A stretch of DNA of 52,621 bases from an uncultured Planctomycetia bacterium (GCA_964445715.1 CAYULJ010000001.1:1-52621); one strand, 5' to 3'; numbered from the stretch's first letter, positions 546 to 52,621 are shown. A program made the numbers and translations. Notes: a model not told the origin generated them from the sequence alone.

Positions 546-3500
546 CAAAGACAGAGATAGATGAAGAGAATTATAGAGATCTATTGTCAGGCAAGAGAAA
601 GCCGCTGTCAGAATTGCTTACGAGCTTAAATTTTAAAAGCAAACTAAGGGGGATAATGGGCTATGCTGCAACAGATTTTATTGATAGATTTAATGTTAAT
701 GCCAACGTTGCTGAGAGATTAGGTATATTTATTGATGAAATACGTCCTATTTCGGGTAGATTCACTGCTGTTGTATCTGCATTTGGACTAGAGGTAGTCG
801 GACAAGATATAGATAGCGTAGGATTTATGTTTACTCTTGAATTCAGAGAATATCTTGAATCCGATATCGTGATCAAAAAAGATGCTGCTGGGAATATATA
901 TATTGGATATGGAAAGCAGTGTGCAAGGGTGAGAACCAGTGGCGCTCAATATGAAGTGATTAGTCATAACCTTTTTGCTAGAGTTCCAGCAGCTGAGACA
1001 ATAACGATTACAAAGAAAGATGTTACGGTAGAGACCGCTGATGTTGCCGCAGCTTCCGAAGAAGTTATCCAACCAACTGTTGCTGAGTCTGAGGATGATT
1101 TAGAAGCTGATACGAGCACAGGCGGATCGGTTATACCAGAATTAGAATACATAGAAAAAGTAGCATGGCTTGAGACACCAGTTGCATATTTAGCTGGCTT
1201 TATTTACTTATGGCTGTCTGATATAAGTTTATATGCCCTGCCATTGGTTGGTCTTGGTCTCTGGATTTCACACTTTATAGGGGCCTTTGGCTATAAGAAA
1301 TACATAGAGGGCGGTACTTATAAAGAAGCGTTTAAGGCAGGCTTGCGCGCGTTGTTTAGGATAGATGTAACAACGCTTTCGTTTTTGACTTCTGTTATTG
1401 GTGTTGGGTTTTTTATAGCTGGACCGCTTGGGTTTGTTGTTGCAAATGCTATTTTAATATTGTGGCATTTTATCGTAAATAAATTTAGAGCTAAAGACAT
1501 AAAAGAGGAAGAAGAAGGGCGGCCTAGATTTGCCAGTCTGATAAACGGCATTGCCCGCCGTGGTTGGGCCAGCCTTTCTTCTTTCTTTAAATCTTATTTT
1601 TCTAAACATGAGGCGAGAAAAAGAAGCGCTGCAAAGATAGTGCGGATCCTTATGGATACAGGCGCGTTTGATCTTGATGATCATGCAGAGGATTATTTAT
1701 TCGATGAGCTTCTTGGAAAGCCAAGCCATGAAGTCGACTTTGCAACGTTACGCAGAATACAGCTGGCCTTGGAGCAGGAAGGCATAGAGGCCCTGAAAAG
1801 AAAAGCCCAGAAGAAGGATAAGTTTGAATTCTCAGAAGACGAAGCTGCGTATGAACAGGTAAAAGATTTGGCTGCAAGGGCTTTTAAGGGCGCTCTATCA
1901 ATACCTTTATATATGCCTAAAAACTTTATCTGGCAGCCAATCGCCCCTCATGTGCAATACCGCTATTCCAGGAAGAGTCGCCAAGGTTTACTTAGCAAGG
2001 ATGATATAGCGAGGGTTATAAAAGGCACAGAAGGCCTGGAAGAGAAAACAGCGCCTTCTACAAATACCCTGGTCATAGCTTTCAGGTATTTCTGGGATCA
2101 TGCAGGAGTGATTATCTTCGAGCTCTTAAAATTTTCCTTAAAGTTCGCAATCATATCTCAGTTTACCGTATTTATAGCACCTTTTATACTTGCACTTTTG
2201 CCTGTGGGGATTGCCACATTTTCAGTTGCCGGCATGCCTATTTTTGGCATGACATTTTTCGCATGGTCAGCCGAATATATATTGGACAGGCTTTTGACAA
2301 ATACGCTGTTGAATTCCTTATCTATAGTAAAGCAGAGAAAGCAGCAGCTTGCAGAGGAAAAGCTTGCCTATAAACTTTCAGACCTTCCTAAGATAGAGGG
2401 CGTAGAGATTCCAAAGGCAGGAGATTTCAATGCATTGTCAGCGTATCTAGAGGCAGCACAGGAAACCACAACCCGTCTTTCGAAACCTGATATCGCAGCC
2501 GTAGAAGAACGATTGAGTTTTTATCCTGATTGGCAGAGATCATATCTTATATCATTACTGAATGATATAACTTCCAGCACAGAAAGAGGTGTTCCTAGGG
2601 CGAGAGAGCCTCCGACCAAGATATCTAAGAAAGAATCTTTTGTATTGTATTTACAGGCCATAGTCCTAAGTATCCCGGTCTTCGAAGGCTGGACTGTCAG
2701 GATCTTCCTAAAGAATTATAAAGGCTCACAATTAAAAGGCTGGAATAAAGCAGCACATATTGTACAGCTATCCTTATTCGCGCTTGGTTCTTCCCTGACA
2801 TTTAGCATAATAAAATCTACGCTTTCCCATATGTTTATTACAGGCGCGATAAATCAGTTTAGCCAGGGTGCATTATCTCAGATTCCGGTTGTCGCGCCCA
2901 TTGTAAACTATGTTACGAATTCAGGAGATATGTTAGTAGATAGCGCTCTTACTAACGATATTACTACTTCTGTGTACCATGCTTTTGGCGGAGACCTGCC
3001 AACGCTTAAGCACTTTATCTTAGAACCAAGGGCAGATTGGCTATATGACCAAGATGCTGGATTTATTGCAAGCTCGTTAGCCTCGGATAGCAACGCAAGA
3101 GAAGTCTTTGGATTGATAGATATGAGAGATGAAACTCTTGGCCTCCAGGTCCATGCTGAGATGATAATGAATGCTTATGAATCAGCTGAACCTGAATATC
3201 AAGGAGAGGCCGGCAAAGCTGTGCTAGAGAGCATGTTATATGAGAGTATGTTATTTGCAGAAGGCGAATTCATGTTAATAGTTGCAACAATGGACAGACT
3301 TGACCAGCTGCAGGAACAAGGCCTTATCTCAGAAGAAATCGCTTCAGAGATCATGCAGGCCATGTCGTACTATGAGACAGCCGCGAGTGTGTTTAGTGGG
3401 TTAATGGAAGATGTTTTTCAGGCTGAGCCACAACAGGAACAAGAGCCTGATCGCATACCTCTCCCTGTAGAATACTTTATTCCAAACCCGTCAGCATCAG

Positions 3501-6500
3501 ATGAATACTTTCTTGATTTGAACAATGCTTTTCTAGACAGTTATGACTTAACCGGCTACGAGCTTCATATAACATTCTCAGGAGGAGAAGGGAAAACTGT
3601 CCAGCTTTTTTATAAGGACGGTGACTGGAGAAATCTCTATTCATCTCGACAAACAATCCCAGCTAGCGGACTTATTACATTTAACCCGGAATCTGACCCT
3701 GCAGATATAAGAGGTGCGGATCTTAGCAATGCCCGCGCAGTTGGGGCAAAGATATTCGGAGGCTTGGGCGACGTTACAATAGTAGATGCAGCTTTGGTGC
3801 GTATAGGAAGTGCTGAGGTAGTAGAAGCGCCAGCACCCACGCCTACTTTGGTGCCGACAATAGAGCCCACAGAGACTCTCACTGCATTAGAAATACCGCT
3901 CTTCGAATACCAAACTCAAGACTGGATAGACAGCCAGGCAATAGATGAAGTCAGGCACAACGCCGACGGTACATTGGATTTACATGTGCATTTAGCAAGT
4001 GAGGCAAATATAAAAGAACAGGTAATAGAGTTTCTAGAGACACATCCTGAACTGAATGTAGATATTAGCGGAAAAGGCATAGATGAGTTAGCAGTGCTAG
4101 TAGCGGATGCGATAGACTCGAGCGGAAACTATCAAGATCCAGAATATCAACGTATAAGAGAATTAGTTGGCCAGAGTAAAGGCGAAGCTTTTATAGACCT
4201 CCGTTATGCAGACATCGGCTATCCAGATCATGAACCTGGGCAGACTCTCGATCTCACAAATTATAGACTCGTAGTGACAGTGGACATTCCTCAGCAATTA
4301 GTTGCTCCAGAAGGCGCTCCTAATGGCATTCAGCTCTTCTTTAAGAGCGGCCCAGAATGGTCAGCTGTATATGCCAACTGGACTAATGTCTCACAGGGAG
4401 GTCAAATCACATTAGCTGTGGATATTGGTGCAGTAACTGAGAACTATAATTGGATTTCAAGAGATCCAAATGGCGAGGTATTATTTGACCCGACTGATAT
4501 CAATGCCTTAGGCATAAAGATCGGTTCAGGAGGCATAGCCCTCTCAAACTATGAGACAGATGCATGGTTAAAGGCGACCTCAGTTGAATTGGTACCAGTA
4601 GAAGAAGCAATAGATACAATCCCATATCCACGCCCGATAACACATGGCGAATTTTCACCTGTAGACGTAGAGAGCTTTGTATCCCACAGTGGCCGTAACG
4701 GCATCTGGGGAGAAGAGACGCCCTATGGAACAGCCATGCAGCTTGAAGGTGGATATCTAGATATTGTAGGACACACAGAAGATGGGAGGCCTATAACAAG
4801 GATAGAGCAATTTCTGTTGAATGTAAAAGAAGATGGCGGCAATGAAGCTCGAGTATGGCTATTTAATGACATACGCAATCCAGATGAGATATTCATAATG
4901 AAAGATGGGGCACCTATAGCATTAAGAGGAGGAGTATATGAAGTAACCAAAGCCATTATAGACGCGCAAGAGAGAACAGAAGTCAGGGTAATACCGGTAT
5001 TATTCGACTTCCATATCTTAAATAGCATAAGAGAGGAAGGCGGGGAACTGACAGGAGAGCATCCTGAATTTTTCACAGAAGAAGGAAGAGAGGCTCTTGT
5101 AGAGATTTTTAAGCCGTGGATACAGGGATATGCTTCTCAATTTGAATTAATAGATTTATTTAATGAGCCAGAGAATGTCGCGCCAGAGCCAGATGCTGGA
5201 GTATTGTATAACCCGCATGTATTAACATTCTTGCAATCATTCAGCGATTTAGTTCATGAATACCAAGGCAATGTAACAGTAGGTATAAATAAACCGGAGA
5301 ATGTGTATCGCTATCAAGATATTATACGGTATGACTTGGGAGATGAGTTTTCAGTGCATTTCTATAATGTCTCACCCGGAGACTTGCCATATGCAGGTGA
5401 ACTTGGCGTAGGAACTTCCCCAGTAAGGATTACTGAGATAGGTGCAGATTCTAGGGAAGAGGTAATAGCTTTCATACAAGAGGCATGGGAGAAAGGCTAC
5501 ACTGGAATATCATTCTGGCCACAGGACGGGTTTACATCTGAAGGCCTCCAGGAGGCACTGGATAGTCTTAGGGAAGAATCAGCTAGCTTCAAGGTACAGC
5601 CAAGGCCTGTCGTCTTTGCAATTCCTGCACTAGCTGCACTGGGAACAAGTGTAGCCGGCTTTATGGATCTTATAGCTGATATAGTGCCATCTCTGGATGA
5701 TTTTGATGTTTGGGATGTCGTTAAGGTGCTGGCGGTTGTTACTGTTGGTGGTATTGTCTTGAGCACTGCCGGGCCTGTTGGCTTGTTAGCGGTTGGTTTA
5801 GTCGTTTTTAGTGTTAGTGCCTGTACCACCCCGCCAACGCCTACTCCTGCACCAGCTCCGGATACAAGAACAGAGGTTTTTCTGGAAGCCATGGATAGAG
5901 CAATTCTGGAACTAAGACAGGAAGGCGCGCCTTATATTGAAGAGCTCAGAGAGATGAGGCGCATGTTCGACACAGGCAGGGCTGGTTTTGTATCTATGCC
6001 TGGATTGTGGATGGGTTTGGGAATCCCTTCGCCTGGAGAAGAAGGGGAGATACTTTTCAGTGTTAATTATGAACTTATGGCTCCTTTGTTAGAAAGGGCT
6101 GCGTATGACAATAGATATAATATTTTCCTGAAAGCGATGTTGATTAAAGAGGCAGCTTCTTTGAGTTTTATCCAGGATCATCCTCAAGAGATACAAGACA
6201 TATTTCTGTATAGCGAAGAGTATTACAGATTAAGATCTGATCCAGACAATGATCTCAATACGCCTGAATTAGTACAGGCAGCGCAGAATTATTTCAACAG
6301 TATAGTTACCAGGGAGGCATTTGGCTGGAAGTCCCATATGGAATATTTGGCTGATAATGACATGACAATAGAATCGCTTGTAGCGATGAGAGATGAAGCA
6401 GAGGCGCAGGGATTGTCGCAACTGTCCAGTCTTTTTCACAGTCACGCGATTTACACTTTAGTTGGCGCTCCTGATGGCAGGGTGGACTGGATAAATTTAA

Positions 6501-9500
6501 AACTCGTCCTCTCCAGCGCAATGCAGGTATTAGATGAGAATATCTATAGAGATATAATGACCATAGAGGAGAACAAAGGGACAGTGCGTTATGATGATTC
6601 TATAAATGACTGGGAACTGATTGGCGGCTTTGTCGATGAAAACGATAGATTTCATTATCCGGATAACTTTTTAGAATTCCTCAGGGAGGATAATATAGAC
6701 TCAGGCGCACAAGACCCTGCTACTGTGCCTGAACAGCCGGCAGTTACAGAAGAGGCGGCTGCGCAATTGTTGAGTGCGCTTCTTGAGGAAATCCATAGCG
6801 ATATGCTCGGAGGGAGAGATGCTGCATTATCTGGGTTACCTTATTCTGAAGAAGCTTATAATAACCTAAAAGATATATTGACTAGCGGAAGAGTTACGGT
6901 AGAAGACAGCACAGGGTTCTTTACGATTTTAGTCCCACAGGCTGATGGCCGCACAATAGATCGCGTAATCATAAGCAGCTCAATATTAAGTCCCGAATAC
7001 TATGCGATATTGAAAGATGCCTTGAGGCATGAACTCGTGCATTTTGCTGACAACACATTAGAGAGAAAGATGTTGTTGGCAGAGGAGTTTGGCGAGACTG
7101 TCCAGCTAGAGATCCTGAATTTGTTTTCCAGCGATGATTTTAAGCAAAACGGCTTAAATCTTTCTCAATACCTGGAACATAAACTCAGAGAAGATCCAGG
7201 GTTTGTAGAATTGATCAAACGGTTAACAGCTTTATATATACAGGATGAATACGTGGCATTTGATAGAGTACCTGGCAGTATACCTTTCGAGGTATACGCC
7301 AACTTGCTTGATCTTGACGGAGAAGGCAGGGCTACAGGGATCAGAGATGAGACGGGATTTAGATTATGGTTGTTTGAGGGCTATTTAAGAAGGCAGAATC
7401 CGCTTCTCTATATCCTGGCAGCAGAAGTAGAACGGATCGAAGGCCGCGGGATTTATCATCCAGTATATAATTGGGATAACGGGACAGCTATGCAGTATTA
7501 CCGCGTGCCTATATCCATAACAGAGACTGATGTGCAGTTTTTCGATCTTTCCTATCCGATGCTTATTCCCAGGGCATTTGCCTATGATGTAAATGGAAAT
7601 CCCAGAGCAGTGCCATCTCCTGCAGATGATATTTCTTTATACGTTACGCTGGAAGATTACAGAAGAGATTACCTCCCCTACATTATGGATCCTGGCTATT
7701 ATAGGGCAGAGACAACAGGAGGAGGCAAGATGTTTAAGATAATGCCACCTACTATTGCGCAGTATGATGCTGTCCAGGACCAGATAATAGAAGGCTTTCC
7801 AGAGGCCACCGAAGCCGACATCCGCGCCTCTATCCGCACCCAACTTCAGCCTATAGTCACAAACATCGATGACGTAGACACATATACCAGGGAATACTGG
7901 ATGGTATGGAACTCCTTTGCTCACCCATGGGTAAAGGAAGAGTTATCCAGCTTACTACTTGACTCTGGTAATAGAGGTAACCATGTCCTTGAGATAGTAG
8001 AAGCAATAGGCTTTGACCCAGAAGTAGACCAGACTGCAAAAGTCATCTGGGCTGATGATCTAAAAGATATATTCACTAATACCATCTCTGCGGATTATGT
8101 AAGGGGCACGTGGGCATTGTGGGGACTTGTACAGATAACAGGAGATGAGGCTTCAGACGCTGTAAGCGTAGAAGGCATATCCTCAGCTGTAAGAATAAAA
8201 TTAAACGAGTTGCTCGATGATCCTGCAACTGACTGGACCAGTTACCAGGCAATAATCCCTGCCTTAGACGGAGGAGAGTGGCCGGCTGATGTAAGGCTTG
8301 ACTCATTTGAGGTATTCGAAGGAGTTGTAAATAATCCAGGCGTATCTGATACTGAAAAGATAGAAATAGGAAATACAGTCCTTCGCGCGTTAGAAGCTAT
8401 CCACGCAGCAGGCAGCTACGGTATGTATGAACAATACATAATAGTAGCAGGAGCAAAGGTCCTTGCAGGAATAGGAAGGGATGAGACAATACCGGATTCA
8501 GATAAAGAAGCATTCTTTGATAGATTAAGCGCCTTACCTCTTCGTGGATTTACTGATCCTGAAAACAATGACGAGATATTCATACAAGAAGTGGATGAGG
8601 ACTTCTTGGTCATAAATCAATATTATCATATACCTGATGAGACCCTTGAAGCTTTAATGAGCCTGGACGCAGAAGCGCTGATTAATGGAGATGCCTTCAG
8701 GTCAGAAGATGACCCATTCGTAAGAGAATCTATCTATGGTAGTGAATGGGATAGGACAGTCGGCGACAGCGAGAAGCTTGCCCTATCACAGGCTGCGAGG
8801 ATTTTATTAGAAGGTTATAATCTTGAAAACTACGACACCTTGCCTCCAGAAGACCAGATCGCAATTAGAGCAGCCTTAGAGATAGCAGAAGCTGCATGCC
8901 ATGACGCAACACTCTCTATAGATGAAAAGAAGACCTGGGCAACATACCTTATAGATATATACACGAACACCTCTATACCTTATACAGTAAGGGCAAGAGC
9001 AAGCTGGGCTCCTTATGAGGTATCAAGAGACCCGCGTATAGACATTGCATCCAAGATAGATGAAATAGCCACACCTCTGATAGCATTTTTAAATCTAAAT
9101 ATAGATAACCTCACAAACTACGAGGCTGTCGCAGCATTAGACTGGGATACATACCCAGCCGGCGAGCAATTTGATTCCTTACGCATATTAAAGGAGATAG
9201 CAAGGTCCCCTGACTTTGAAACTCTTCCTGAATCAAACGTAACGCCTATAGTTGATGCTACAGTATCGGTTTTAAACAACATTAATCTGGATTCTCCTGA
9301 CGCGCACGATCTAGAGGCAATAGCGCACGGGACAGAGACATTAAACATAATCTTCTCGACTACAAACGCAATATCAGGAACCAGCATGCAAGCCGCATAT
9401 GATCTCTTGCTCAGCCTCTCGGTCAATGAGAATATCTACCACGAGATATATGTCAAGGATGTTGATGAAGACTCAAATACCGTAGAGATCTACTATAACA

Positions 9501-12500
9501 TAGCTGATGAGGTGAACAAGGCACTGGGGGTGGTGATGCAAACCCAACTCTCTCAAGGCCTCTCTGAAGCCGACATCCGCGCCTCTATCCGCACCCAACT
9601 TCAGCCTATAGTCACAAACATCGATGACGTAGACACATATACCAGGGAATACTGGATGGTATGGAACTCCTTTGCTCACCCATGGGTAAAGGAAGAGTTA
9701 TCCAGCTTACTACTTGACTCTGGTAATAGAGGTAACCATGTCCTTGAGATAGTAGAAGCAATAGGCTTTGACCCAGAAGTAGACCAGACTGCAAAAGTCA
9801 TCTGGGCTGATGATCTAAAAGATATATTCACTAATACCATCTCTGCGGATTATGTAAGGGGCACGTGGGCATTGTGGGGACTTGTACAGATAACAGGAGA
9901 TGAGGCTTCAGACGCTGTAAGCGTAGAAGGCATATCCTCAGCTGTAAGAATAAAATTAAACGAGTTGCTCGATGATCCTGCAACTGACTGGACCAGTTAC
10001 CAGGCAATAATCCCTGCCTTAGACGGAGGAGAGTGGCCGGCTGATGTAAGGCTTGACTCATTTGAGGTATTCGAAGGAGTTGTAAATAATCCAGGCGTAT
10101 CTGATACTGAAAAGATAGAAATAGGAAATACAGTCCTTCGCGCGTTAGAAGCTATCCACGCAGCAGGCAGCTACGGTATGTATGAACAATACATAATAGT
10201 AGCAGGAGCAAAGGTCCTTGCAGGAATAGGAAGGGATGAGACAATACCGGATTCAGATAAAGAAGCATTCTTTGATAGATTAAGCGCCTTACCTCTTCGT
10301 GGATTTACTGATCCTGAAAACAATGACGAGATATTCATACAAGAAGTGGATGAGGACTTCTTGGTCATAAATCAATATTATCATATACCTGATGAGACCC
10401 TTGAAGCTTTAATGAGCCTGGACGCAGAAGCGCTGATTAATGGAGATGCCTTCAGGTCAGAAGATGACCCATTCGTAAGAGAATCTATCTATGGTAGTGA
10501 ATGGGATAGGACAGTCGGCGACAGCGAGAAGCTTGCCCTATCACAGGCTGCGAGGATTTTATTAGAAGGTTATAATCTTGAAAACTACGACACCTTGCCT
10601 CCAGAAGACCAGATCGCAATTAGAGCAGCCTTAGAGATAGCAGAAGCTGCATGCCATGACGCAACACTCTCTATAGATGAAAAGAAGACCTGGGCAACAT
10701 ACCTTATAGATATATACACGAACACCTCTATACCTTATACAGTAAGGGCAAGAGCAAGCTGGGCTCCTTATGAGGTATCAAGAGACCCGCGTATAGACAT
10801 TGCATCCAAGATAGATGAAATAGCCACACCTCTGATAGCATTTTTAAATCTAAATATAGATAACCTCACAAACTACGAGGCTGTCGCAGCATTAGACTGG
10901 GATACATACCCAGCCGGCGAGCAATTTGATTCCTTACGCATATTAAAGGAGATAGCAAGGTCCCCTGACTTTGAAACTCTTCCTGAATCAAACGTAACGC
11001 CTATAGTTGATGCTACAGTATCGGTTTTAAACAACATTAATCTGGATTCTCCTGACGCGCACGATCTAGAGGCAATAGCGCACGGGACAGAGACATTAAA
11101 CATAATCTTCTCGACTACAAACGCAATATCAGGAACCAGCATGCAAGCCGCATATGATCTCTTGCTCAGCCTCTCGGTCAATGAGAATATCTACCACGAG
11201 ATATATGTCAAGGATGTTGATGAAGACTCAAATACCGTAGAGATCTACTATAACATAGCTGATGAGGTGAACAAGGCACTGGGGGTGGTGATGCAGGCTA
11301 TGGGAGCCAGTGGCATAGCTTTTGATTTAGAACCAGTTCGGGTGAGCGATTCAGAAGCAGCACAAGAGCAACCCGCAGCGCCGCAGCCAGCAGCAGCACT
11401 CCAGCAGCAACAAGATACTATAACACTGCTTCCTTATGAACCCGTTACTGATATTGGCCGAGACGGACAAGAATATATACTTAATTCAAGGTTACTATGG
11501 CAGGGAATATATGAATATGGCTATCTTGCTCACCAGGAGATAGTTGATGCAGACTGGAATTATCGTTTCGCAGAGTTAAATGGACAGCCTGTTCTCGCGC
11601 GCTGGGGTAGGCAGGATTATAATGCTGGAGCATTAGAGGTATTTAGCTGGACATATGCAGATGCTACTTTTGCCACAATCAGTATTGAAGAATTCAATAA
11701 TGATATAATCGTCCTTGATAATCAGGTGTCATTGTCCATGGATCAGCAGACTCTGTTCCTGGATACCTTGGGAGTGGGCGTAGCAGGCATCGGAGGCGGA
11801 GATATAGTCGATCTGCCATTGGAACCAGGCCCTGAGGGATTTGTTGTAGAGGGCATGCTCTATCGTCAGACCCTTGGTGGCCAGGTAGAATATGTGGATG
11901 CTGAGTTTAGATATTGGTTTGCCCAGCGCACAAGCGACAACGCTTATTTTCTCATAAGACAAGGCAGGTATTATTCGGAGCATAAAGATAAAATCGAGAT
12001 GTTTGAGATCTCGCCTGATCTTATTTCAGGAGAGACTCCGAGTTTCAACGATATGACCAGAGATGTGTTCAGGGACATTGTATCACAAGAACCAAGCGTA
12101 CCTACTACTTATGATGTTGAAGAGACAGTCTTGGTCGGCCTGGCTGAAATGCCTGCAGAAGCCCAGGTATATCCTGACGCACAAACATTCGAGTACGAAG
12201 GCCTTATAGAAGGCGTAATAAGCGGCAACAAGAAAGAGATCATGAGAGGGGATGCATTGCTGCAATATCTGGAAGGTCTGGCAATAAGTTATGAGTTGCC
12301 GTTAGAGATAAAACCATATGAGAACTATCCGGTTTTCACGAACTTCTACGAAGATGAGTCTGGGAACGCGCTTGGATATGATGTTTCAGTCTTTTTCTCT
12401 GAACTGGCGAGAGAAGGACATGAATATGACCCAGAAGCGTGGCGCCCTGCTGGCAGCACCCGGCCTCCTGATTTCACAGTTGTGCGCACTGACTTTATTG

Positions 12501-15500
12501 AAGAGCGCACAGATGAGATGAACAACGTAATATCGACTATCCAGGCCGAGATTCTTGCAGAAGCGACCAGGGATGAGTTGGCGGGTAAGACATATCCTGA
12601 GCAGCATACGACATACCAGATCCAATGGAATGATGGCCAGATCATACTTTTTGATCTTAGTTATTGGGTTGCAAACCAAACTCCCTATGCGCAGGAAGTG
12701 GCAATAATAAATCCAGTCACAGCTGAGGTTATAAAGGTAGGCCCGATCTATGGCGAGAGATTGAATTTCGCAGGTAATGTATATACCCTGCCAGAGGGTA
12801 GTTCATATGCGGATGGCGAGAATGAAGCTGGCCAGTACTTTACATGGAGGATATCAGAAGCAAGTGCAGATTCTATAACAGCAGAACTTGTGCGTGAATT
12901 TGAAGTGGCTTTATCTATAGTCCCGCAGGAAGCTCTTGATATTGCAAGCGGTTTAGGAGTTACGGTTACCAAGGCGCACACCAAGGAATACGGCACCTTG
13001 ATCCTTACTCCCGGCACAGACGGCATTTTAGGGAATGGTGATGATGTCTCTATCCCGGACTGGAAGAGAGAAGATTTCTTTATATATGGCGAGCCCGAAG
13101 AGCTTGGAAGCGGCCTGATAAAGATCGCGGCTATACCAGGAGATGATTCTATAGAGCCATACGTTGTGTATCAGGAAAGAACGGTTATAAATGGTATTGA
13201 ATATTTCACTACATATAGAGAGATGCCGGATGGGACGGGTTGGCTTGTTACGCCAGGCAGGTGGCCAGAGGCGACTATGAAGGTCGTCTTGCCGGATGGA
13301 ATGGACATCGCTCATCCAGATGTCCTCAGTGAACTGAAGAAACCAGAAAATGTAGTGGAGTATTATGGGCTTTCAAAACCAATCGGCGAAGGTGGCCTTA
13401 TGGAGATAGAGATCATAACAGGCCCGAATGACCCGAATAGATTCGAGGGTGAGAAGCGCACTATCTACCGCGATGCAGAGATGAATACATATACGCTGGC
13501 AGAGGATGGAATCGGTTGGAATGTTACACTGCGTGGTGCATTGGACGTGTCTATGTATATAGTTTTGGATGAGGGTAAAGACATCTCTGATATCACTCCA
13601 GTAGCAGGCCAGACTATTATGGATGCATTACAAGAGAATGCAGTGGAGAGACATTTGTATAATTATGACGCAGGGTATGTAGTAGATGGCAGATTACAAG
13701 TAATCGGAATTACAAAAGAAAAAAGAGACGTTCCTGCAGATCCATGGGTGGAAGATGAAGTATTTGTAATGTATAGAGACAAAGAAGATGATACTACTTA
13801 TAGACAGGAAGAAGATGGCCCTGGTTGGTATGTTACACCTAAGGGAACAGATGATGCCTCGATGTATATTGTTTTGGAAGAAGGGAAAGATATTTCTGGT
13901 ATCGCTCCAGTAGCAGGCCAGACCATTCCGGAAGCATTAGAAGAGAGTGCTATAGAGATAGACACATATAATTATGGAGCACTTGTAGCAGGAGAGAGGT
14001 TGCGAGAAATTAATGTTATAGAAAAAGAACGCAGCGCCCTTGGCGATAGCTGGCAGCGAGAGGAAAGTTTCACTATATATAGAGATGCAGATGGCGTTAC
14101 TTACAGAGAGGCAGAAGACGGTATTGGCTGGTATGTTACGCCTCGTGGCGGATTAGACGCCTTGATGTATATTGTCTTGGCTGGAGGCCAGAGCATCGTT
14201 GATATTGTCCCAGCAGCAGATCAGACTGTTCTTCTAGCGCTGGAAGAGAATGTTATAGAAAGACATTTGTATAATTATGACGGAGGATATGTTGCAGGCG
14301 GCAAGCTGCAGGTAATCGAGGTTACAATAGAAAAACTAGGTATTCCTGATGAAGCATTTACTATATATAGAGATGAGGATCGTAATACCTATAGAGAGGC
14401 AGAAGACGGCACTGGATGGTATCGCACTCCGACTAACGGACTGGTACATCAAGCAGACGCAAAGATAACCTTACCTGATGGAGTAGATATTAACGATGAA
14501 GGTGCGTTGGAAGAATTAAGGAAAGAGAGCAATCTAATAGTCAAGTATGGTTCTTGGGTGAGTTTATCCGATGAATTAGCTGTGCAGAGAAACACTTGGG
14601 GGCCTAGCGCGCCAGCAGGAAAGGCGCCTGGTGAGATTGAAGCGCTTTATAGGCTTAGCGTAATAGGCAAGTACATAACTGTAAAAAGCCCTGAGCAACA
14701 GTCGCATCAGATCAGCTCACCATATTATGGATTATGGGAGATAGTTTTATCAGGCGATGACCCATTCGAATATACCTCATATTTTATCCCGGCTTCGAAT
14801 GTGGATATAGAAGCGATAACTGATTTTAAGGCGTTGTTTATGGCCATGGATGATTACGCCGAGAAGCGCATGGAATGGATAAATGGCGAAATTACAGACG
14901 ATGAGATTCTCGCTGCGTTTGACTTGTTTAAAGAGACATTGCTGGATATAGGAGGGATTACATTCCCGGCAGATTTTGACAATGTAGCTGATGTTGCTGA
15001 AGACAGCAGATTAGTGCCGCGGGTAGGCAAAAAGGAAATTACAAGTATCACAGAAGGCGTTATCCCCTCCAGGGAAGAGCCAGAACCAGAACCTCAGGAA
15101 GTTATTGAACCTATTACAATTGACGAGGCCATCGGAGTAGCAAGGCAGACTCTGGGTATCACGCTCGCTCTTGACCAGGCAAAGGAAGAAGATGGATGGC
15201 TTGTATGGGATTTTCCCAGGACTTTTAGAAAGGATATTGAACTTAGGCTTAGCCTTAACTCCTCTGATGATGGGATTATTTATGGTCAATTAATTACATG
15301 GGATTATTTGCATCAAAACAGTAAAATGTTGGTGGCCCAGATTCGGCCGGATGGGGTTATGTATATTGATGCTGGAATATCGTGGATGCCGGCATATACA
15401 TTAGGCATTATGACAGCCCTTGATGTCCAGCAGGATGATATTTCAGATACGGGTTGGGATATCAGGTATGACGCTTTTTCTGACGAGCTTAGATGGCTTC

Positions 15501-18500
15501 ATGGGATAGGTGAAGTTGTGTCTGTGACTCAGGATGTTTTCGACGGGCCTTATGAGCTCCATTTAACTACGCGCTGGTTCAAAGAAGCTACTATTACGAT
15601 GGACAATGACCCTCGCATAGCAGGTTTTATACCTATAATATATGCGCTCCGGGACCATGGCGTAGAAGAAGCTACCCTGGCTCTAGAGGAAGGGGAAGGC
15701 AGTATTAAAGTAGATCAAGGTGGGACCTTGACCATACAAGGCGGCAATGTCATTAAAATTGCGCCGACTGAGAACGAAGGCGAGTATCTAGCTACTGTAA
15801 ACGATAGAGAGTATAAGGTTATAGTAGAAGGCGACGGCACAATCACAATCGAGGGAGAAGCGGCTATAGAAGAAGGCGCGTTTATGCCAGACTCTTTCGG
15901 AGTAGGTCTTGGCGCAGGCCTGAATTTTACCCTGCCGGCCTTTTTAGGATTTATTGAGTTGCTGCAGGATGTATTGCAGCCAGAAGAGCCGGAATATATA
16001 CCGCTGACAGGTTTTATAGAGAATCCGTCAGCCTCGGATGAATTCTTTCTTGATCTGCGCTTTCTGGACCTGGGCATTCCACAAAATGATGACGGAAGCT
16101 ATGATTTAAGTCAATATGATCTTGTTATAACATTCGAAGGGGGGTCGGGCAGGAAGGTGCAGTTTTTCTATAAGGATATTGACTGGGGGAATCTTTATTC
16201 ATCCAGAAAACAAATTAGAAGCGGAGAACCTCTTATATTTAATACAGAATCTGATTTTACAGAGGTAAGAGGAGCGGATCTCACGCATGTAGCTGCAGTT
16301 GGCGCAAAGCTATTCGGTAATCTAGGCCTGAGGGGTGTGACTATTGAGAATGCCGGGTTAATGCTTAGGAGGATCGATGATGAGGTTCCGGTAGAAGATG
16401 TGTCAGAACCGGATATAAATATAGGAGATTTTATTAGTGAGCATCCATTGTATACAGCAGGCAGTGCTGCTCTGGGAGTCCTTGCTGGCATTGGCGCAGG
16501 GATCGGTGCCGCAGCCCTGTTTACTTCAGCGCCTATATGGGTGCCTGTTGCTGCAGGAATACTTGTGGGCGCAGGAGTTATTGCCGGCAGTTATCTTATA
16601 GGTCAGGCGATATTCAAAGCAGAAGACCTGGAACCAGAGGGGGCTACATTCAAAGTACAACCAAGACTTGTCATTGCGAGGAGCGTAAGCGATGAAGCAA
16701 TCTCTTCTTCTGTCCTGGCAATGTCAGGAGCAGGGATTTTTGCAGGAGCAGGTTTTACTGAAACGCTCGCAGGCGCATATGATATAGTGAGCGGCTATAT
16801 CTTCTCCAAGCCTCAAGAGGAACCAGAGCCTCCTACAGGCACTCATGATATCCCGTTGGATGGTTGGCGTATTGGAAATCCTGGCTTTGGGACAGCTATT
16901 ACTAATGTAGCGCGTGAAGGCGATACACTCCGTCTGACAGTGGCGAGGTCTTCTGATAAGAAAGGTGAGATCTGGATACCGGCTGATATATTATGGGAGG
17001 CCATGGGAATTGAAGGGCCAGTGGATCTAAGTGGGATAGAAGTGAATATGGATGTTCAATCTCAAGGCTCAGGACAGTATGGGCTGCAGGTAGCGTTTCA
17101 CAATGGAACCCTTGGATTTAAAGCGCATAACTATTTTGGGTGGCAGGTTACAGGAGGCAATCAGGAAAGCGTATGGAGAGGATACGAAGATCTCCGCGAT
17201 TGGGTGGATCTTTCTACCTATGATCCTGACAATGTAACATATTTATCCATCAAAGTCGATAACACCAAGGGCTTTACAGGAGACATTGTGCTGAGTAATC
17301 TTCAGATTACATTCCCGGAGGAAGGGATTGCGCTGCCAGAGCTGGAACCGCGTCTCACTGACACAGAGGTTATAGATCCGTTTGAAGGAGAACTCTCTCA
17401 AAATATAGGTGTAAATTTAGGCAATACAGGTGGCCACGATATAGGTATTTGGTCCGGGACACATGAGGGCTTCTCTTCGACAACTGGTGAGGCTAGATTG
17501 CGTAATTTGGTCGCAGATCTTCCGGAGGGCACTGCGGTGCGTGTGTTCTTAAGTCTGGATGGCAGGGCGCGATTTGTAAACGCAGACGGACAATTGACAG
17601 ATGTTGCCCGAGCTGACTTAGATACATTAATACAAGTCTTTCGGGACAATAATTTAAAATTGATCCCTGTTTTGATGAGTTTTGATGTTGCAAATAGTAG
17701 CGGAGTAGCAGACCATCCTGAATGGTTTGAAGATCAAAAAGAGCGCCAAAATATGATAGCTAATTATGCTAAGATGGTAGAATACTTGGCTAATCTGGAT
17801 CCTCAGCATGAAGTAATCGCGGCATGGGAGCTTATTAACGAGCCTGAAGGCATGAAGGTGAATCCGCAAGACATAGCTGTTACGCTTATTGAGCTTACCA
17901 ATATGATCCGCGAGATCGATCCTGAGATACCTATAACAGTAGGTATGCGCAATGTAGCTACGTTATTGCAGGAAGGCTCGGTGCTTACTGAAACTGTATT
18001 AACTGTGTCTGACTTCCTGCAGGTGCATCATTACGAAAATCCGAGTGAACTGCGATCCTATGATTTAGGAGAAGAAATTGGTTTCCCTGAGAGAGATACA
18101 TGGATAGAACGATTGACTGCTTTGGCAGAGGCGCATTCAACATTGCGGATTTATGTCGGGGAGTTGGATCCCTGGATCTCTCCAGAAGAGGTAGCCCATG
18201 TTCTGGAGATGGCAGGAGTGGATGGCGTGGCTGTCTGGGGACTGCATAGCTTCGCGGAGGGAGACGGACGCTATTCGCAGCGTCTTGCTGAGCGCGGAGG
18301 CTTTATTGGTTGGCAACAAGAGGTTCTGCAAGGGCTGTCCGAAGCCGAACAAGTTATTCCAGTTGAAGAAGAGATCCTTTCTCCTCCTATTAGTGTACTA
18401 CCCGAGCTTAAGATAGACAGTAATTTCCGGCTTATGAAAGGAGAAGAAATAGGCATTGTCTCTTTATCCAGCGAAGAGGACTATTTTATAACAGATGAAT

Positions 18501-21500
18501 ACGGGAATATATACTCACCCAGAGGGAATTACATCGATGTTATAAGTCCACGTGACGAGCGAATTTCTCTGACCTATATTTTCGAAGATGCAATAGATGT
18601 CGAGGGACTTGCCCTTTCAGAGCTCGGAGATATTATAAGCGATAACATAGGATACTTTATTTACGCCTATGATAGATCAGCTGTGCTTCCCGAGGGAACT
18701 GTCGTAGTTACAAGGATAGAGTATGATGTCGAGGGCGACCAGGTTGGTGAATCTACATGGTATCTTTTCAGCAAAGATTTATTAGGTCAGTTTGAACGAA
18801 GAGCGGAAGAATTCTTTGGTCAGGATTTAGACATTAATAATCCTGAGCACGAAAACATGCTCAATGCATTTACGGCATTCGCTATCAATGTAGGCGATGA
18901 GCGTTTGAGCACCGCCTTGACAAGTGCCCGAATTCTAAGGCCGTTCTTTAACGAAATCTGGAGCGCTAGCTTAGAAGGCTTTGATTTTGGTGATGAAGAT
19001 AGACTTTCCACGCTGTTTTACTGGACAACAGAATTGGCCTTTGACAAGGATGTTGCGCGTGAGCCAGAGGAAATCGAGGCGATCCTTGTCCGCGCTAGAG
19101 AGCTAAGGCCTATTATTGTCGAGCGTCTATCAGGGTTATGTAATGAGTATGGCCTTGATAAAGCAATAGACGCGATCGAACAGCTTGATACATCAACGCA
19201 TGCTGGCAAATATGCTTTTTCATTGATCATGTACCACGCTTCTAATGAGACCGAGATCAACACAATACTCACTAGCAACATAGAAAGGCTGCTTGCCCTA
19301 AAGTCTATAGTAAGTCCAGAAGACTATGAGACCATAGAAGCGCAGGAGCTTGACAGAATCACGCAGGAAAATATAGATGGGCTTACGCAGGAGGTAGGCA
19401 GGTTTAGTGGACCGCTTAGTGTGACTGAGACATTCGAAGGATTTGTCTATGGAGAAGTCAATAATCTCCAAAAGGCTGTTAGTGAAGGGGGTCTTACTGA
19501 TCCTGTTACGATAGAAACGTGGCAGAAAGTTATCTACGCATACATTCAGGCATATACTGTTGTCTCTAGAAGTAAATCTATGGGGCAGGAATTTACAGGG
19601 AGCCCTGAAAGACTTATAAGCGGAGTCCTTTCTATCCTTGAGAATACACAGGTATCTGGCGAACCACATAATCTCATGACCCTTACGAATTTAATCTTTG
19701 AAGGCAGAGACATCGAAGGCGTATCTTTTGAAGATCTGATAGAGCTAGATGCAGATAATCCTGTTTGGATATATGAGTTTGATGAGCCTATGGACTTAAG
19801 CGGAGCAGGTTTAGTCCTGCCGATGAGGATTGAAAATCAGGGCTCAGCCTATGCACGCATAACTGTATTTGACGAGACAGGAGGCGTTGCCTACGCAGAT
19901 GTGTTCCAGATCCTTCCCGCAGGTTCTAAACTGCCTGAAACTGCAGAAGAGGTGTATTTCAGGTTTTTTGCACCTAGCGCAAGCGGGTTAAATGCATTGG
20001 CAGCTCGCATACAGATAGAGGTATTGGACGGGTATGCGGATGTGATTGATGAACAGACTAACTTTGCGCAATTAGAGTATATCCAGGGGTGGATTTCGAA
20101 TAATTCTGACATAACCCTTGCAACCGTAGTTCCATTAGGACAGATCCGGCCAACAATAGAAGTCGCAGGAGAGGGTTTCAGGAGAGACCTTGACGGAGAT
20201 GGCGCCTTAGAAGACTGGTTTATCATAGGAGGCAACTGGAGGCCGCTTGGCTATGGGAATATTTCCGAAGTCGTAGATTATGAGGATATTATTGATGATG
20301 CAATAGCTGAAAAGGCGCAGGACGGCTACAGCGTACTCAGGGTAGGATTATTAGATGACGGCCGGGCTTTTTTTGACGGCGACAGGGACAAGATCATAGA
20401 GAGCGCTCTCTCGCTTTTAAGGCTGGCTAACAAGAACGGCGTAATGATAGAGTTTACACTCGCAGATTTTCTTATGTTCGCAGAGCATCCAGAGGCTATA
20501 AGCAATGCTGAAGTAAGTGACTTTTTAGAGGAATTACTTGAGAGGATAAATAAAGACCCAGAGGCAAAAGCAGCCTTGTTTGGATTTGACCTCTTAAATG
20601 AACCAGAGTGGCTTATAGATGATGAGGATTCAATAATAGTAAATGATGAAGACGGAATAATAACACAGGAAGAAATCGAAGTCTATGTAACGAATAACTC
20701 AGCTGTTATTAGAAGCTTAATACCCGAGGCATTCGTAACTGTAGGCATATCAGCGGATAAAGCGGATCTCTTGAATAATGTGCAGAATCTCCTTGATTAT
20801 AACGCAGTGCAATACTACGCCTATATGGGTGATTTCTCCGGACTTATAGGTGCCCTTCCGCAGGATAAACCATGGATCTTAGAAGAGTATCCTACAAGAG
20901 ATGAAGGTCGTCCTATTGATCCTTCATTCTATCTTGATATGGTCAGAGACACTAGTGGTGCAGGCGCATTTGTATGGCAATTGGAGCCGGCACGCAGGCC
21001 TTTAACCCCGGATACCAGAGTAATGATACAGAACTTCCGTCTCCGTGAAGTTGACCGGGTTGAAGGAGTGATACAGGATGAATTTAATATTTCTCTGAAT
21101 AGAGATCTACAGATCAATGATACCCCAGAGCTATTGACTCATGACCCAGGCTACGGCCGATTATTCTATAGGCTGAATAAAGAAGGAGAACTAGTTAATC
21201 TGATAGATAGGCTTCTTAATATCACAGGCATTGCGCCGAGGCAGGCTGATTTAACAGAGCCTTTAGAGATATACTTGATAGACGAATGGGGCAAAGAGCA
21301 TCTTATAGGAAAAGCAGAAGCTAACCCTGACGGCACTTTCTCTCTCGAAGATACGCAAACATGGCTTGCAGATTCAAGGATCCAGAATATCCAGATGATA
21401 GAGCTCAGGTTTACCTATAAATCTGTAATGCCATCAGCCTGGTGGGCTTATGGGTCTATCTTTACAGCTTTCATTATAAATCTCATCGGTACCTTTCTAA

Positions 21501-24500
21501 GGGTTTTATCCCAGTATCTAAAGTATCTTGAAAGAACTAAAGATTATCCTGGTAAGCCAAAGACGCTAAGAGCCAGGATATCGAAGTTATTAAAGGCCCT
21601 TATTTTTAAAGTAGCAAAAAAGCCTGATAAGCCAAAACCTGCAATAGATCTACCATTGCCAGATGAGGTTCAACCAGTTACTCTAAAGCCGAAAGACATA
21701 GATGACAATGTGCTTATCGATCGTGTGCGCGAGGCAGCCAAGGCTATCTGGGACTGGGTAGATGAGATGCATGTGGACTTCCGTGCGATAGGACATCAGC
21801 AGGAGGATGAAAATAAGTTCTTGCCATGGATGCGTAGCCCGGAGATCTGGCAGACTGCTGACCACAAGATCGCGCCTCGCTATTCGCTTCGTCCTGCCCG
21901 CAATGTAGTCCTGCTCGCCTTGATAGCAAGTCTATTGGCATTAAATGACTATTCTGGCGCATTGACCTGGATCTTTCCAATACTTGTACTTTTAACAGCA
22001 TCAGGTTGGTTCAACTGGCGTAAATTCAGGGACTGGACAGTGTATGGAGGCCTGACATTTACCGTATTACATCAACTCTTGCCTTTATTCGGCGTAGGCC
22101 ATGAGATGATAAGCCTGGCTTTTACAGTAGCTGCGCTTTTCTTATATGCGGCATCACCATTTTTTAGATACATAGATACTATCCGAAGGCCTCAGGTGTA
22201 TGTCGAAAACCAGCGCGATAGGCTCGAGACGCTCCACAGCATCCTGCATATTATACAGAATGGAAGCGAGGAACTTGAACAATTAGCTGTATTAATACCT
22301 GATGATGTCAAGCCTAGTGGTTTGGAAGGAAAGATGTTAGCAATAGTGAGAGGAGAGGTTCCTGTTAGACTGGATACGTTGCCTGCGGGTATCGAATTTC
22401 CTGAGAATATAATTTATAAGGGTAGATATCTTATTCTTGAAGGCGTGATGACCCGCGAGCAATACAAGATCTTAAAATCATACTCTTCTGACGATATGTC
22501 TTATCAGAAGGCAGTTGACAGGTTACTTGCATTCTCCAATGCCAAGAGATATATGAAGGCCAGGGCGTATTGGTATGGAGAAGGAAGAGGAGGAAGTAGA
22601 TGGAAATGCTGGAAATTCACGGGTAAACAGGCAAAACAACACCTTGCAGCTGTTGCAAAAAATCCTGACCTTTTACTTCCCTATACCAATGACCTCAGGC
22701 GATGGAGACGCTCCCATGCGTTTGGCAGGCAAGAGGTATTTGCCATACTTAGAGTACTGCCGTCTGAAATAGATACTGATGCTGGTCGTCGTCTTCTTCA
22801 CGCATCAGGTGTCTGGCATGATGCCGACAGGGGCCAACTCATGACATTTGGTCCAATGACAGAAGCTCAGCGTGATGACTTATTAGCTCTTTCAGCCGAT
22901 GCAGATTACCAGGATGCGATTCGAGAGATTTTTGATACGTTGCAGAGACAAGACCGAGGTCCAGAGGGACATTATCTGCTCGGCGGTGGCATAGAACAGG
23001 CAGAGCCATTCTCTGCTACCCTTGATCGAGCTATTACAGAACTTGAAGGCGCTGGAGATGCAGAGGGTCTGCTTGATCGCCGTGTTGGAGAAGTCAGCAT
23101 AACTAGACCATTATTAACGTCTTTAGGCTGGACTATTCCTGTAATAGTTGTAGGAATAGTAGGTATGATCTTCGCCCCAGCCATATTAGGAGCAAGTACA
23201 GTTATTATTATACCGGCAGCTACACTGCTTGTATCAATAATGGTATTTACAAGGACGCTCAGTCGCGAGATAGAAAAACAAATGCTCATCAGGCCTGCAT
23301 TGGATATGCGCAAGATCCTGGTGGAGAACTTCAGGATCATCTATAACAATGAGACTGGCTCAGGGTTGGTGGCCTTTGATGCCTGGCGTACGCTTATGGA
23401 AATCGCAGCAGCCATGAACCGCAGTAAGAAAGATATTAGAGACAAGGCAGGTCCTGCTGGCTATAAAGAAAAAGATGTGAAAAAGATAGTGCAGGAGAGC
23501 CTTAATGATATAAGGATAGCAATGACAAGCGTGAGAGACTCTGCGATTGCGCGCTGGTTCATTGATTCCTTTCATCTATCAAGGTACCAGGGCTTTATTG
23601 GCCGCACACGCGCTATACTGCGCAATGCGTTCTGGCTTTTTGTGTTTGGCTCAGCTGTTTATGTGACAGGGTTGCTGGGTATTTACGCAATAACAGAACT
23701 CTCTGCATTCTTGAATCTTGGTCACTTGCTGCCATTTGAGGAGATATTTGCCCGTCCTTTTGCAGTATTAGAGATAGCAAAGCTTTTAATACAAAATGTC
23801 CCTCATGCCATAGTTGATAGAAATCTGGGGATCATTTTTAATGACATGGCGCCGTGGCTTGTGTTTGCCTTTAGTCAGACATTTCTGGGCATGGTGATAT
23901 TTGGCGCCCTTACCCTTACCATGGGGAAATTTACATTCTACTTTCTTGGAAGCTTTGCAAAGCTATATCCTGATGAGGAAAATGTAACAGAAGGGCATTT
24001 TGTGAGGCTTGGCGCTATGGCATTGATAGCAGCAGGGGTCTTAATAATCCCAGGAGCCGGATGGATCTTGCTTCTAACAAAGACATTTGCCGGATTTGCG
24101 TTGCTTGCTTCTTTATACATGTTCCCTATACTTTTAAAAGCGCGTAGCAGATTTAAAGGCATTGGCCAGGATGATAAGCTTCAGAGTACAAAGGCTTCAT
24201 TTGAAGACTTTGTGAGGACAGTGTTGCAGCGCTATGATTCAAAAGAGATAGATGCTATTCTTAAAACCGGGGATCTGAGCCACTCTGAGCGCAGGCGCTA
24301 TGAAAGAGCATTAGGTAAAGGTGCAGTTCCATCAGGAGTAGAGTATAGAATGGATATCCCATTAAGGGATGCGATTAATGAGGCATTTGGACAATTGACT
24401 GCAGAACAAATCCTTACACGTATGTCAGGAGCTGGTTTTAGAGAACTTAAAGACTATTTGCGAAAACAAGGTACTGAGATAGATAATGAAGCAGAGCTAT

Positions 24501-52105: not shown

Positions 52106-52139
52106 CTTTACACTTCAACAATGTTAAAGTGTATACTTA
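52103..52139 (+). repeat. Palindromic element E1 (degraded copy), starts at the stop codon of the giant ORF
   Basis: The sequence is TAACTTTACAC-TTCAACAATGTTAAA-GTGTATACTTA. The 11-nt arms pair at 9 of 11 positions around a 15-nt loop. It shares about 29 of 34 positions with E2. An alternative inner fold is TACACTT/AAGTGTA (52109-52133). Confidence 0.7.
52107..52137 (+). promoter_or_regulatory. Weak sigma-70-like promoter candidate embedded in E1
   Basis: TTTACA (52107-52112) and TATACT (52132-52137) are separated by 19 nt. The same geometry exists in E2 (TTTACA 52561-52566, TAAAGT 52586-52591). The promoter consensus of the host is unknown. Confidence 0.2.
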
Positions 52140-52158
52140 TTTCAGTAGGTAGACATTA

Positions 52159-52163
52159 AAGGA
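52159..52163 (+). promoter_or_regulatory. Shine-Dalgarno-like AAGGA for the 129-aa ORF
   Basis: AAGGA lies 6 nt upstream of the GTG at 52170. Confidence 0.4.
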
Positions 52164-52169
52164 TACTTA

Positions 52170-52559: not shown

Positions 52560-52595
52560 CTTTACACGTTAACATTGTTAAAGTGTAAAGTTAAG
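52555..52595 (+). repeat. Palindromic element E2 (perfect 13-bp arms), starts at the stop codon of the 129-aa ORF
   Basis: CTTAACTTTACAC (52555-52567) and GTGTAAAGTTAAG (52583-52595) are exact reverse complements around the 15-nt loop GTTAACATTGTTAAA. E2 lies 454 nt downstream of E1 in the same orientation. Confidence 0.8.
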
Positions 52596-52621
52596 GGGCC
52601 AGGCACGGTGCGTGGCACGAG

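Follow-up and report, generated by a model that had tools for sequence, protein, structure and literature searches.

Three divergent GH5-type barrels with conserved catalytic residues in a giant membrane protein, probably from an Omnitrophota-like bacterium

Are the glycoside hydrolase-like motifs spread along a giant bacterial open reading frame (ORF) the marks of genuine enzyme domains, and what might such enzymes cut? The question is raised by GCA_964445715.1 CAYULJ010000001.1:1-52621, a stretch of 52,621 nucleotides (nt) deposited under an uncultured Planctomycetia bacterium, which we analyzed as a whole and call the window. We found that a single ORF on the plus strand (nt 2 to 52105) dominates it. 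With the first TTG, at nt 188, taken as its start, this ORF encodes at least 17,305 amino acids (aa) and fills nearly all of the window (nt 188 to 52105). Since the frame has no stop from nt 2 onward, the gene almost certainly extends upstream of the window, which makes the full protein longer than these 17,305 aa. Positions convert as nt = 188 + (aa − 1) × 3, and all features of the protein given below lie on the plus strand. The first-pass annotation, made from the sequence alone, had proposed that the ORF carries three barrels resembling glycoside hydrolase (GH) family 5. Our analysis favors a giant membrane protein with three retaining GH5-type beta-glycosidase domains that act on an extracellular beta-linked glycan, and we think this reading probably right.

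The three domains, here B1, B2, and B3, have clear positions in the protein. B1 spans nt 4667 to 5602 (aa 1494 to 1805) and B2 spans nt 17405 to 18337 (aa 5740 to 6050); both are GH5-like (beta/alpha)8 domains by a family hidden Markov model (HMM), AlphaFold2 (AF2) modeling, and Foldseek searches, and B2 also has a subthreshold match to Pfam PF00150. B3 spans nt 20135 to 21037 (aa 6650 to 6950) and is a GH5-like domain of a distinct subfamily, recognized by a subfamily profile searched against the PDB and by the family HMM. Each of the 12 landmark motifs listed in the first-pass annotation is present once, in the order given, within the one ORF. These are LFNEPEN (aa 1657), HFY (1724), ITEIG (1748), and FWP (1776) in B1; LINEPEG (5882), HHY (5947), YVGELD (5989), and VWG (6016) in B2; and LLNEPEW (6802), YYAY (6876), ILEEYP (6897), and VWQ (6929) in B3. 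Across the giant protein, NEP occurs 4 times with 2.3 expected, which is not unusual. NEPE occurs 3 times, every time in a barrel, with 0.19 expected.

The three regions resemble each other weakly around the NEP strand, and their pairwise identity is 20 to 33%. Each has its own relatives elsewhere. B1 has the orthologues P0004 (E = 1e-108, 55% identity) and P0011, and B3 has P0007, P0008, P0016, and P0009 (E of about 1e-50); the nearest relatives of B2 reach only about 1e-20. From the separate orthologues and the low identity we conclude that the barrels are old paralogues rather than recent duplicates.

Assignment to a family depended strongly on how the search was made. Pfam scans of 4,500-aa and 500-aa slices found nothing within aa 1 to 8500. 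When we cut the protein into slices of about 440 aa, B2 matched PF00150 (E = 2.3e-4) at 21.2 bits, under the 23.5-bit cutoff. That match came from a 441-aa slice only, and long-slice Pfam scans are therefore unreliable for a protein of this size. Searched as a single sequence against the PDB, B2 gave weak matches to clan GH-A enzymes (mannanases, GH2 glucuronidases, and PslG), and B1 and B3 gave no clan GH-A match and one or two unrelated marginal ones. A profile built from the alignment of the three barrels reached the GH5 beta-mannanases 3VUP (E = 7.7e-9), 2C0H (1.2e-8), and 4OOU (8e-7). The GH5/clan GH-A assignment in the first-pass annotation is thus borne out by significant matches at the level of profiles, not of single sequences.

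We then found a large family with the same three-barrel profile. An exhaustive search of 1.84e9 representative proteins gave 753 relatives at E ≤ 1e-3, 215 of them at E ≤ 1e-10; word-indexed homologue searches had returned 0, 2, and 6 proteins. Many of the relatives are 1,000 to 7,800 aa long; the best 150 include 59 of more than 1,000 aa and 15 of more than 3,000 aa. Of 65 short relatives compared with Pfam, 29 match PF00150, and a few more fall to GH2_C, GH10, or Apiosidase, which are likewise families of clan GH-A. A profile of these 65 relatives, none of them from the window, matched 2C0H (E = 1.7e-50) and 3VUP (5.7e-50) over the whole barrel, with the NEPE motif and the nucleophile Glu in register, and hhalign joined the window barrels to this outside family with a probability of 100% (E = 1.4e-44).

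The same outside family, as an HMM with no window sequence in it, was run against the 17,305-aa protein. It returned exactly three domains, at aa 1537 to 1780 (132 bits), 5697 to 6023 (146 bits), and 6671 to 6936 (152 bits), and no match elsewhere in the protein. We also considered the fourth NEP (aa 8446), which lies near a weak match to a family 2 glycosyltransferase (GT2), as a further barrel and rejected it, since the family HMM finds nothing there. The subfamily profile of B3 matched 3VUP (E = 1.1e-24) and 2C0H (7e-24), and the barrel of 3VUP was aligned in two stretches. Of the three, B1 diverges the most. For the family as a whole, four animal-type mannanases are the closest structures solved, and entries of the fungal/plant GH5_7 type and of the cellulase type come after them. 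We take these mannanases to carry the subfamily label GH5_10.

Structural models agree with the profiles. We modeled B2 (aa 5740 to 6050) with AF2 from a 49-sequence alignment and obtained eight regular strand-helix units with a mean predicted local distance difference test score (pLDDT) of 86.4 and a predicted template modeling score (pTM) of 0.88. In the numbering of the model, N145 and E146 follow strand 4 (residues 141 to 145), E253 lies in strand 7 (248 to 254), and W278 comes after strand 8. Foldseek placed this model closest to 3VUP (E = 2e-11), 2C0H, 4OOU, and 5Y6T, with query template modeling scores of 0.63 to 0.67. The model of B1 together with the module before it (aa 1320 to 1805) has a pLDDT of 83.9, and most barrel residues exceed 90. 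Here N340 and E341 come after strand 4, E431 lies within strand 7, and helix 6 is almost absent; the best Foldseek matches were 4OOZ/4OOU, 3VUP, and 2C0H (E = 3e-11 to 3e-10). Clan GH-A enzymes make up all 50 of the matches listed for B2, the same is true of B1, and the structural matches of both have a probability of 1.0. In the two barrels that were modeled, B1 and B2, the (beta/alpha)8 fold and the pair of Glu residues, placed where strands 4 and 7 end, are therefore as first proposed. By the fold of the B1 and B2 models, the catalytic residues, and the profile similarity, we found it confirmed that the three barrels are divergent members of GH5 (clan GH-A).

We used the 49-sequence family alignment to examine residue conservation. 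In five columns every sequence has the same residue, namely, the Arg on strand 2, each of the two catalytic Glu residues (acid/base and nucleophile), a Gly on strand 5, and the Trp on strand 8. Nearly as constant are the His and Tyr on strand 6, a Thr, and the two neighbors of the Glu in NEP, Asn and Pro. In B1 the acid/base is E1660 (nt 5165 to 5167; preceded by N1659), directly after strand 4 of the model, and the nucleophile is E1750 of ITEIG (nt 5435 to 5437), within strand 7. In B2 they are E5885 (nt 17840 to 17842; preceded by N5884), after strand 4, and E5992 of YVGELD (nt 18161 to 18163), in strand 7. In B3 they are E6805 (nt 20600 to 20602; preceded by N6804) and E6900 (nt 20885 to 20887). 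All six sit in the invariant columns, so the glutamate pairs picked out beforehand are the same ones that the family conserves. The B3 nucleophile is the second Glu of ILEEYP, whose LEE aligns with VGE of 3VUP; its neighbor E6899 is also conserved within the B3 subfamily. The acid/base column aligns with NEPE, and the nucleophile column with IGE/VGE, of 2C0H/3VUP. The strand-2 Arg is R1555, R5785, and R6718 in B1, B2, and B3, respectively; the strand-6 Tyr is Y1726, Y5949, and Y6877; the strand-8 Trp is W1777, W6017, and W6930; and the strand-6 His is H1724 in B1 and H5947 in B2. We also considered YAGELG of B1 as the nucleophile strand and rejected it, since ITEIG (in SPVRITE) matches the family pattern KPxxxGE.

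A beta module accompanies the barrels. We found copies of about 130 to 150 aa at four places. Copy 1 (nt 3461 to 3826, aa 1092 to 1213) matches the module HMM with an independent E value (iE) of 1.9e-25, being itself in the training alignment, and resembles aa 5255 to 5392 (E = 2e-34). Copy 2 (nt 4151 to 4597, aa 1322 to 1470) stands directly before B1 and is predicted to be all beta, with about nine strands; residues 1 to 160 of the AF2 model are all beta with a pLDDT of 60 to 90. Copy 3 (nt 16004 to 16381, aa 5273 to 5398) was recognized by its similarity to copy 1 and by the module HMM. The divergent copy 4 (nt 16934 to 17314, aa 5583 to 5709), directly before B2 and outside the training alignment, gave a weak match (iE = 6.4e-3). 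The module HMM detected no copy before B3. The first-pass annotation had placed a module like a carbohydrate-binding module (CBM) before each barrel; this is clear for B1 and weakly supported for B2 (iE = 6e-3), and for B3 no such module was detected.

In many stand-alone proteins of about 550 to 600 aa, and in other large proteins, the module likewise comes before the barrel. This recurrence supports a functional partnership of module and barrel. Against CBM families the best matches were not significant (CBM15, 1GNY, E = 0.13; Pfam Mann_GBD_bact, E = 0.03 to 0.07 in 3 of 12 members). As Pfam does not recognize the module and its best matches are insignificant, "CBM-like" is a reasonable but unproven description, and the module could represent an undescribed carbohydrate-binding module family.

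A Kyte-Doolittle hydropathy scan of the giant protein gave 47 hydrophobic segments. Right after B1 lies a transmembrane cluster of two or three helices (nt 5603 to 5827, aa 1806 to 1880), a cluster of about two helices lies at nt 16466 to 16615 (aa 5427 to 5476), and the first transmembrane segment after B3 is at nt 21452 to 21508 (aa 7089 to 7107), with more up to aa 7326. Further clusters lie at aa 392 to 424 and 639 to 671. B2 and B3 share one nonhydrophobic segment, aa 5477 to 7088. Transmembrane clusters had been described as separating the barrels from one another; two clusters do separate B1 from B2 and B3, and there is none between B2 and B3. Several stand-alone homologues begin with signal- or lipobox-like N termini in the alignment, which supports an extracytoplasmic role for the family. 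Since the barrels lie in long nonhydrophobic segments and their homologues carry secretion or lipoprotein signals, we infer that the barrels face outward.

These results point to the following mechanism. Three old, divergent GH5 paralogues would be borne on one giant multipass membrane protein. Each barrel would cleave a beta-linked glycan by classical double displacement, with the NEP Glu as the putative acid/base and the strand-7 Glu as the putative nucleophile. Cleavage of a beta-glycan is expected of each barrel because the catalytic Glu pair and the Arg, Tyr, and Trp are all present. The beta-sandwich module before B1, and probably that before B2, probably binds the glycan. Tethered by the transmembrane segments, the barrels would face outward and cut an extracellular glycan, which may be a host or prey surface, a matrix polysaccharide, or the cell's own polymer. 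Because the nearest characterized enzymes are mannanases, a beta-mannoside-containing or similar beta-1,4 glycan is the best guess at the substrate.

Those mannanases are the animal-type GH5 endo-beta-1,4-mannanases of Mytilus edulis (MeMan5A, 2C0H), Aplysia kurodai (AkMan, 3VUP), Cryptopygus antarcticus (CaMan, 4OOU/4OOZ), and Eisenia fetida (5Y6T). They are the top profile match of all three barrels and the top structural match of the B1 and B2 models. They share with the barrels the (beta/alpha)8 fold, the NEP acid/base, the strand-7 nucleophile in a (G/T/E)-E context, and the Arg, Tyr, and Trp, and they resemble the barrels in the loop that follows strand 2 (VRVWL..G...F...G.VTG). They differ in that they are about 350 aa long, whereas the window barrels are about 300 aa, and B1 is without helix 6. 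They are also small secreted digestive enzymes, and the window barrels are embedded in a protein of more than 17,000 aa that is rich in transmembrane segments.

The order of module and barrel also has parallels. Two-domain Foldseek matches of the module-B1 model were ManDH5 of Dictyoglomus thermophilum (9GPA/9GPE), which has a DUF5060 beta-sandwich followed by GH5, and the CBM22-GH10 enzyme Xyn10B (2WYS). Their order of module then barrel is that of the module and B1, and the alignments cover 500 to 530 columns over both domains. The root mean square deviation is 17 to 23 Angstrom, which means that the domains are packed differently. A further difference is that the sequence of the window module matches no CBM or Pfam family significantly (best E = 0.03 to 0.13).

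Several observations weigh against our interpretation. As single sequences the barrels score below the Pfam GH5 gathering threshold, with no match at all for B1 and B3 in the slices of about 440 aa and none for B2 in a 500-aa slice that holds it. A profile of B1 by itself, made from three sequences, barely reaches the PDB (4OOU, E = 0.007). The Foldseek template modeling scores are moderate (0.57 to 0.67), and identity to solved GH5 structures is 14 to 19%. In B3 the strand-6 His is replaced by Gln (Q6875, followed by Y and Y6877); the His is present in 48 of the 49 sequences, and B3 is the sole exception. In B2 a Ser stands at the strand-3 Asp that is kept in 48 of 49, where a two-residue shift of the alignment is possible. 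The clade has this Asp at the place of the strand-3 His of classical GH5. The topology was read from hydropathy alone, and counting of transmembrane segments with the positive-inside rule was ambiguous. The neighborhoods of stand-alone homologues, at two loci, gave no substrate clue. On the side of taxonomy, the closest orthologue of B1 is labeled Elusimicrobiota (HRY29984.1).

The alternative that survives best is that active GH5-type barrels trim or set free a polysaccharide that the same protein or cell produces, much as PslG and BcsZ do, with no attack on a host or prey. PslG-type exopolysaccharide (EPS)-trimming hydrolases belong to clan GH-A, are membrane tethered, and act on an extracellular polymer, and B2 does match PslG, though only among its weaker hits by sequence and by structure. 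The same polypeptide also carries, near dense transmembrane clusters, a weak GT2 match (PF13632, E = 2.8e-5), together with a weak low-molecular-weight phosphatase (LMWPc) match and a phosphoglucose isomerase (PGI) domain. The GT2 and LMWPc matches, however, fall under the Pfam cutoffs. The strongest similarities are to endo-mannanases and not to PslG or BcsZ, the PslG matches of B2 being much weaker than its GH5 mannanase matches. No EPS operon context was demonstrated, and none was obvious around stand-alone relatives at the two loci checked. The published context of such giants favors interaction with prey or host (10.1101/2023.11.21.568195). We judge this alternative unlikely, if still the one to be taken most seriously.

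Could one or more of the barrels instead be catalytically dead and serve as lectin-like glycan binders, for adhesion only? The Gln in B3 and the Ser in B2 described above would fit this. Inactivation also occurs in the family: the NE of NEP has been lost from some B3-type homologues (SRPEW and NQPEW rows), and the column is not invariant in the B3-type alignment. The loss of these residues means that the family includes inactive members; the three barrels of the window are intact. Both catalytic Glu residues and the Arg, Tyr, and Trp are kept in all three window barrels, and Gln is often able to replace a hydrogen-bonding His, which counts against a dead B3. We therefore give the adhesion-only alternative a poor chance.

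A last alternative is that the motif sets resemble GH5 by chance, in a very long ORF of low information content, or come from faulty gene calling, with no real GH domains. It draws on the empty long-slice Pfam scans and the unremarkable frequency of NEP, and it is hardly credible against family HMM scores of 132 to 152 bits at exactly the three barrel sites, hundreds of homologues, and confident AF2 barrels for B1 and B2 whose structural matches have the highest probability.

We return to the giant membrane protein with three GH5-type barrels and ask where its relatives occur. The named relatives are partial proteins of Candidatus Omnitrophota metagenome-assembled genomes (MBD3295946.1, MBU1852100.1, and MFH1593184.1), and the host of the window protein is probably an Omnitrophota-like bacterium. 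A cluster member, MBU1784672.1, is already annotated as a "cellulase family glycosylhydrolase." A scan of genome contigs of GTDB representatives with B1 found distant Vibrio relatives only (25 to 28% identity), and a scan of JGI metagenomes with B1-type patterns found no match. B3-type barrels did occur in JGI metagenomes, both in stand-alone genes and in ORFs that fill their loci, which we call L007, L016, and L023. L007 is open over 5,725 aa and has two barrels.

The comparison with L016 was the most informative. This ORF (contig Ga0080064_1000064, 309 kb; nt 1 to 20897) is open across its locus for 6,965 aa and is collinear with window aa 6302 to 6596 and 6992 to 9123, on both sides of B3. 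In place of the roughly 400-aa region of B3 in the window, L016 has 88 aa; the conserved stretch upstream of B3, aa 6302 to 6596, is thus present in L016 with no barrel after it. Its own barrels lie elsewhere, at aa 3332 to 3647 and 6642 to 6908 of the translated locus. This suggests that barrels move as cassettes among giant ORFs.

A broader version of this idea is tentative and, in our view, somewhat doubtful. Module and barrel together may form a mobile cassette among homologous giant surface proteins, so that each giant would display its own set of specificities against a particular host or prey envelope. In that case, an undescribed GH5 subfamily would be represented by the B1 clade, which is without helix 6, and an undescribed CBM family by the beta module.

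The neighborhoods of the stand-alone homologues contain Peptidase_M23, PASTA, RtcB, and HTH, and BACON_2 was found inside one homologue. One locus (GCA_053530775.1, JAIYSE010000011.1; L005, nt 292 to 2996) carries P0008, a stand-alone B3-type homologue of 486 aa. It has a lipobox-like N terminus and a Pro/Thr-rich linker and adjoins a divergently transcribed Peptidase_M23 gene. Peptidase_M23 is a family of cell wall endopeptidases.

How does the window protein compare with the giants already described? Transmembrane-rich Omnitrophota giants of the "Archaeovorin" type carry glycosyl hydrolases, and that of Velamenicoccus archaeovorus has 39,678 aa (West-Roberts et al. 2023, 10.1101/2023.11.21.568195). 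Most domains of these giants are invisible to HMMs and were found after cutting and modeling, and the published context favors a role in interaction with prey or host (10.1101/2023.11.21.568195). The same paper names a GH76-like domain and generic glycosyl hydrolases, and "GH5" has 0 occurrences in it (10.1101/2023.11.21.568195). Like these giants, the window protein is a single ORF of more than 17,000 codons with many transmembrane clusters and a mosaic of divergent enzyme domains, namely, three GH5-like domains, a weak GT2-like one, HD, CofD, HEAT, a weak LMWPc, and PGI. Most Archaeovorin-type giants contain a divergent SecA DEAD/preprotein-binding domain. In the part of the gene present in the window, no SecA-DEAD-like domain was seen, and Pfam scans gave no SecA family match; as the gene is cut at its 5' end and such domains are highly divergent, one may have gone undetected. 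Attack on, or remodeling of, an external glycan, as proposed in the first-pass annotation, is a reasonable role and matches the published ideas for Omnitrophota giants.

The remainder of the protein is largely unclassified, and about 90% of it has no Pfam match. Pfam matches were to HD, CofD-like, HEAT repeat, and PGI domains, with the GT2-like match (aa ~8557 to 8660) and the LMWPc match below the cutoff. In the order weak GT2, HD, CofD-like, HEAT, weak LMW phosphatase, PGI, and PGI-like repeat, the spans are aa 8557 to 8660, 9321 to 9361, 11508 to 11704, 13000 to 13260, 13731 to 13854, 16137 to 16365, and 16552 to 16771. The PGI domain is thus followed by a second, degenerate PGI-like repeat.

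Several further features lie outside the barrel regions. G+C content across the window is 40 to 48%, and the GC skew is steadily positive. Nucleotides 7796 to 11314 form an in-frame tandem duplication with a unit of 1,755 nt (585 aa). The copies, nt 7796 to 9559 and 9551 to 11314, are 98.75% identical in DNA (22 mismatches) and have no Pfam match; the duplication is either a very recent event or an assembly artifact. The HExxH motif occurs 4 times in the giant protein with 0.35 expected, at aa 2281, 9277, 12901, and 14762 (nt 7028, 28016, 38888, and 44471). Two of these lie within a repeated module flanked by transmembrane segments, in which aa 12782 to 12944 resemble aa 14643 to 14809 (E of about 1e-45). 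The HExxH sites may be metallopeptidase-like and are perhaps tied to self-cleavage of the giant protein. At the 3' side of the giant gene, nt 52106 to 52600 hold an ORF of 129 aa (nt 52170 to 52559, plus strand), whose match is confined to the C-terminal part of PF08843, the AbiEii toxin family (28 bits, E = 2.6e-6; positions 141 to 213 of the 238 in the profile). Related palindromic hairpins flank it, at nt ~52109 to 52133 and 52555 to 52595; the second has a folding energy of −19.1 kcal/mol (z = −5.8).

That transmembrane-rich Omnitrophota giants have glycoside hydrolase domains was already published, and fragments of these giants already carry annotations as cellulase-family hydrolases. To this we add that a single protein carries three distinct GH5 paralogues, that an as yet unclassified beta module recurs, and that there is evidence for the shuffling of cassettes. 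The result confirms and refines prior knowledge and overturns none of it. Standard HMM annotation misses such barrels unless the protein is cut up and profiles are built from metagenomic relatives. Most of the sequence of these giants of ultra-small, host-dependent bacteria has no match, which makes their role hard to read. Three soluble domains of about 300 aa, with clear limits, catalytic residues, and orthologues, offer a handle for probing which glycan and which cell surface these proteins target.

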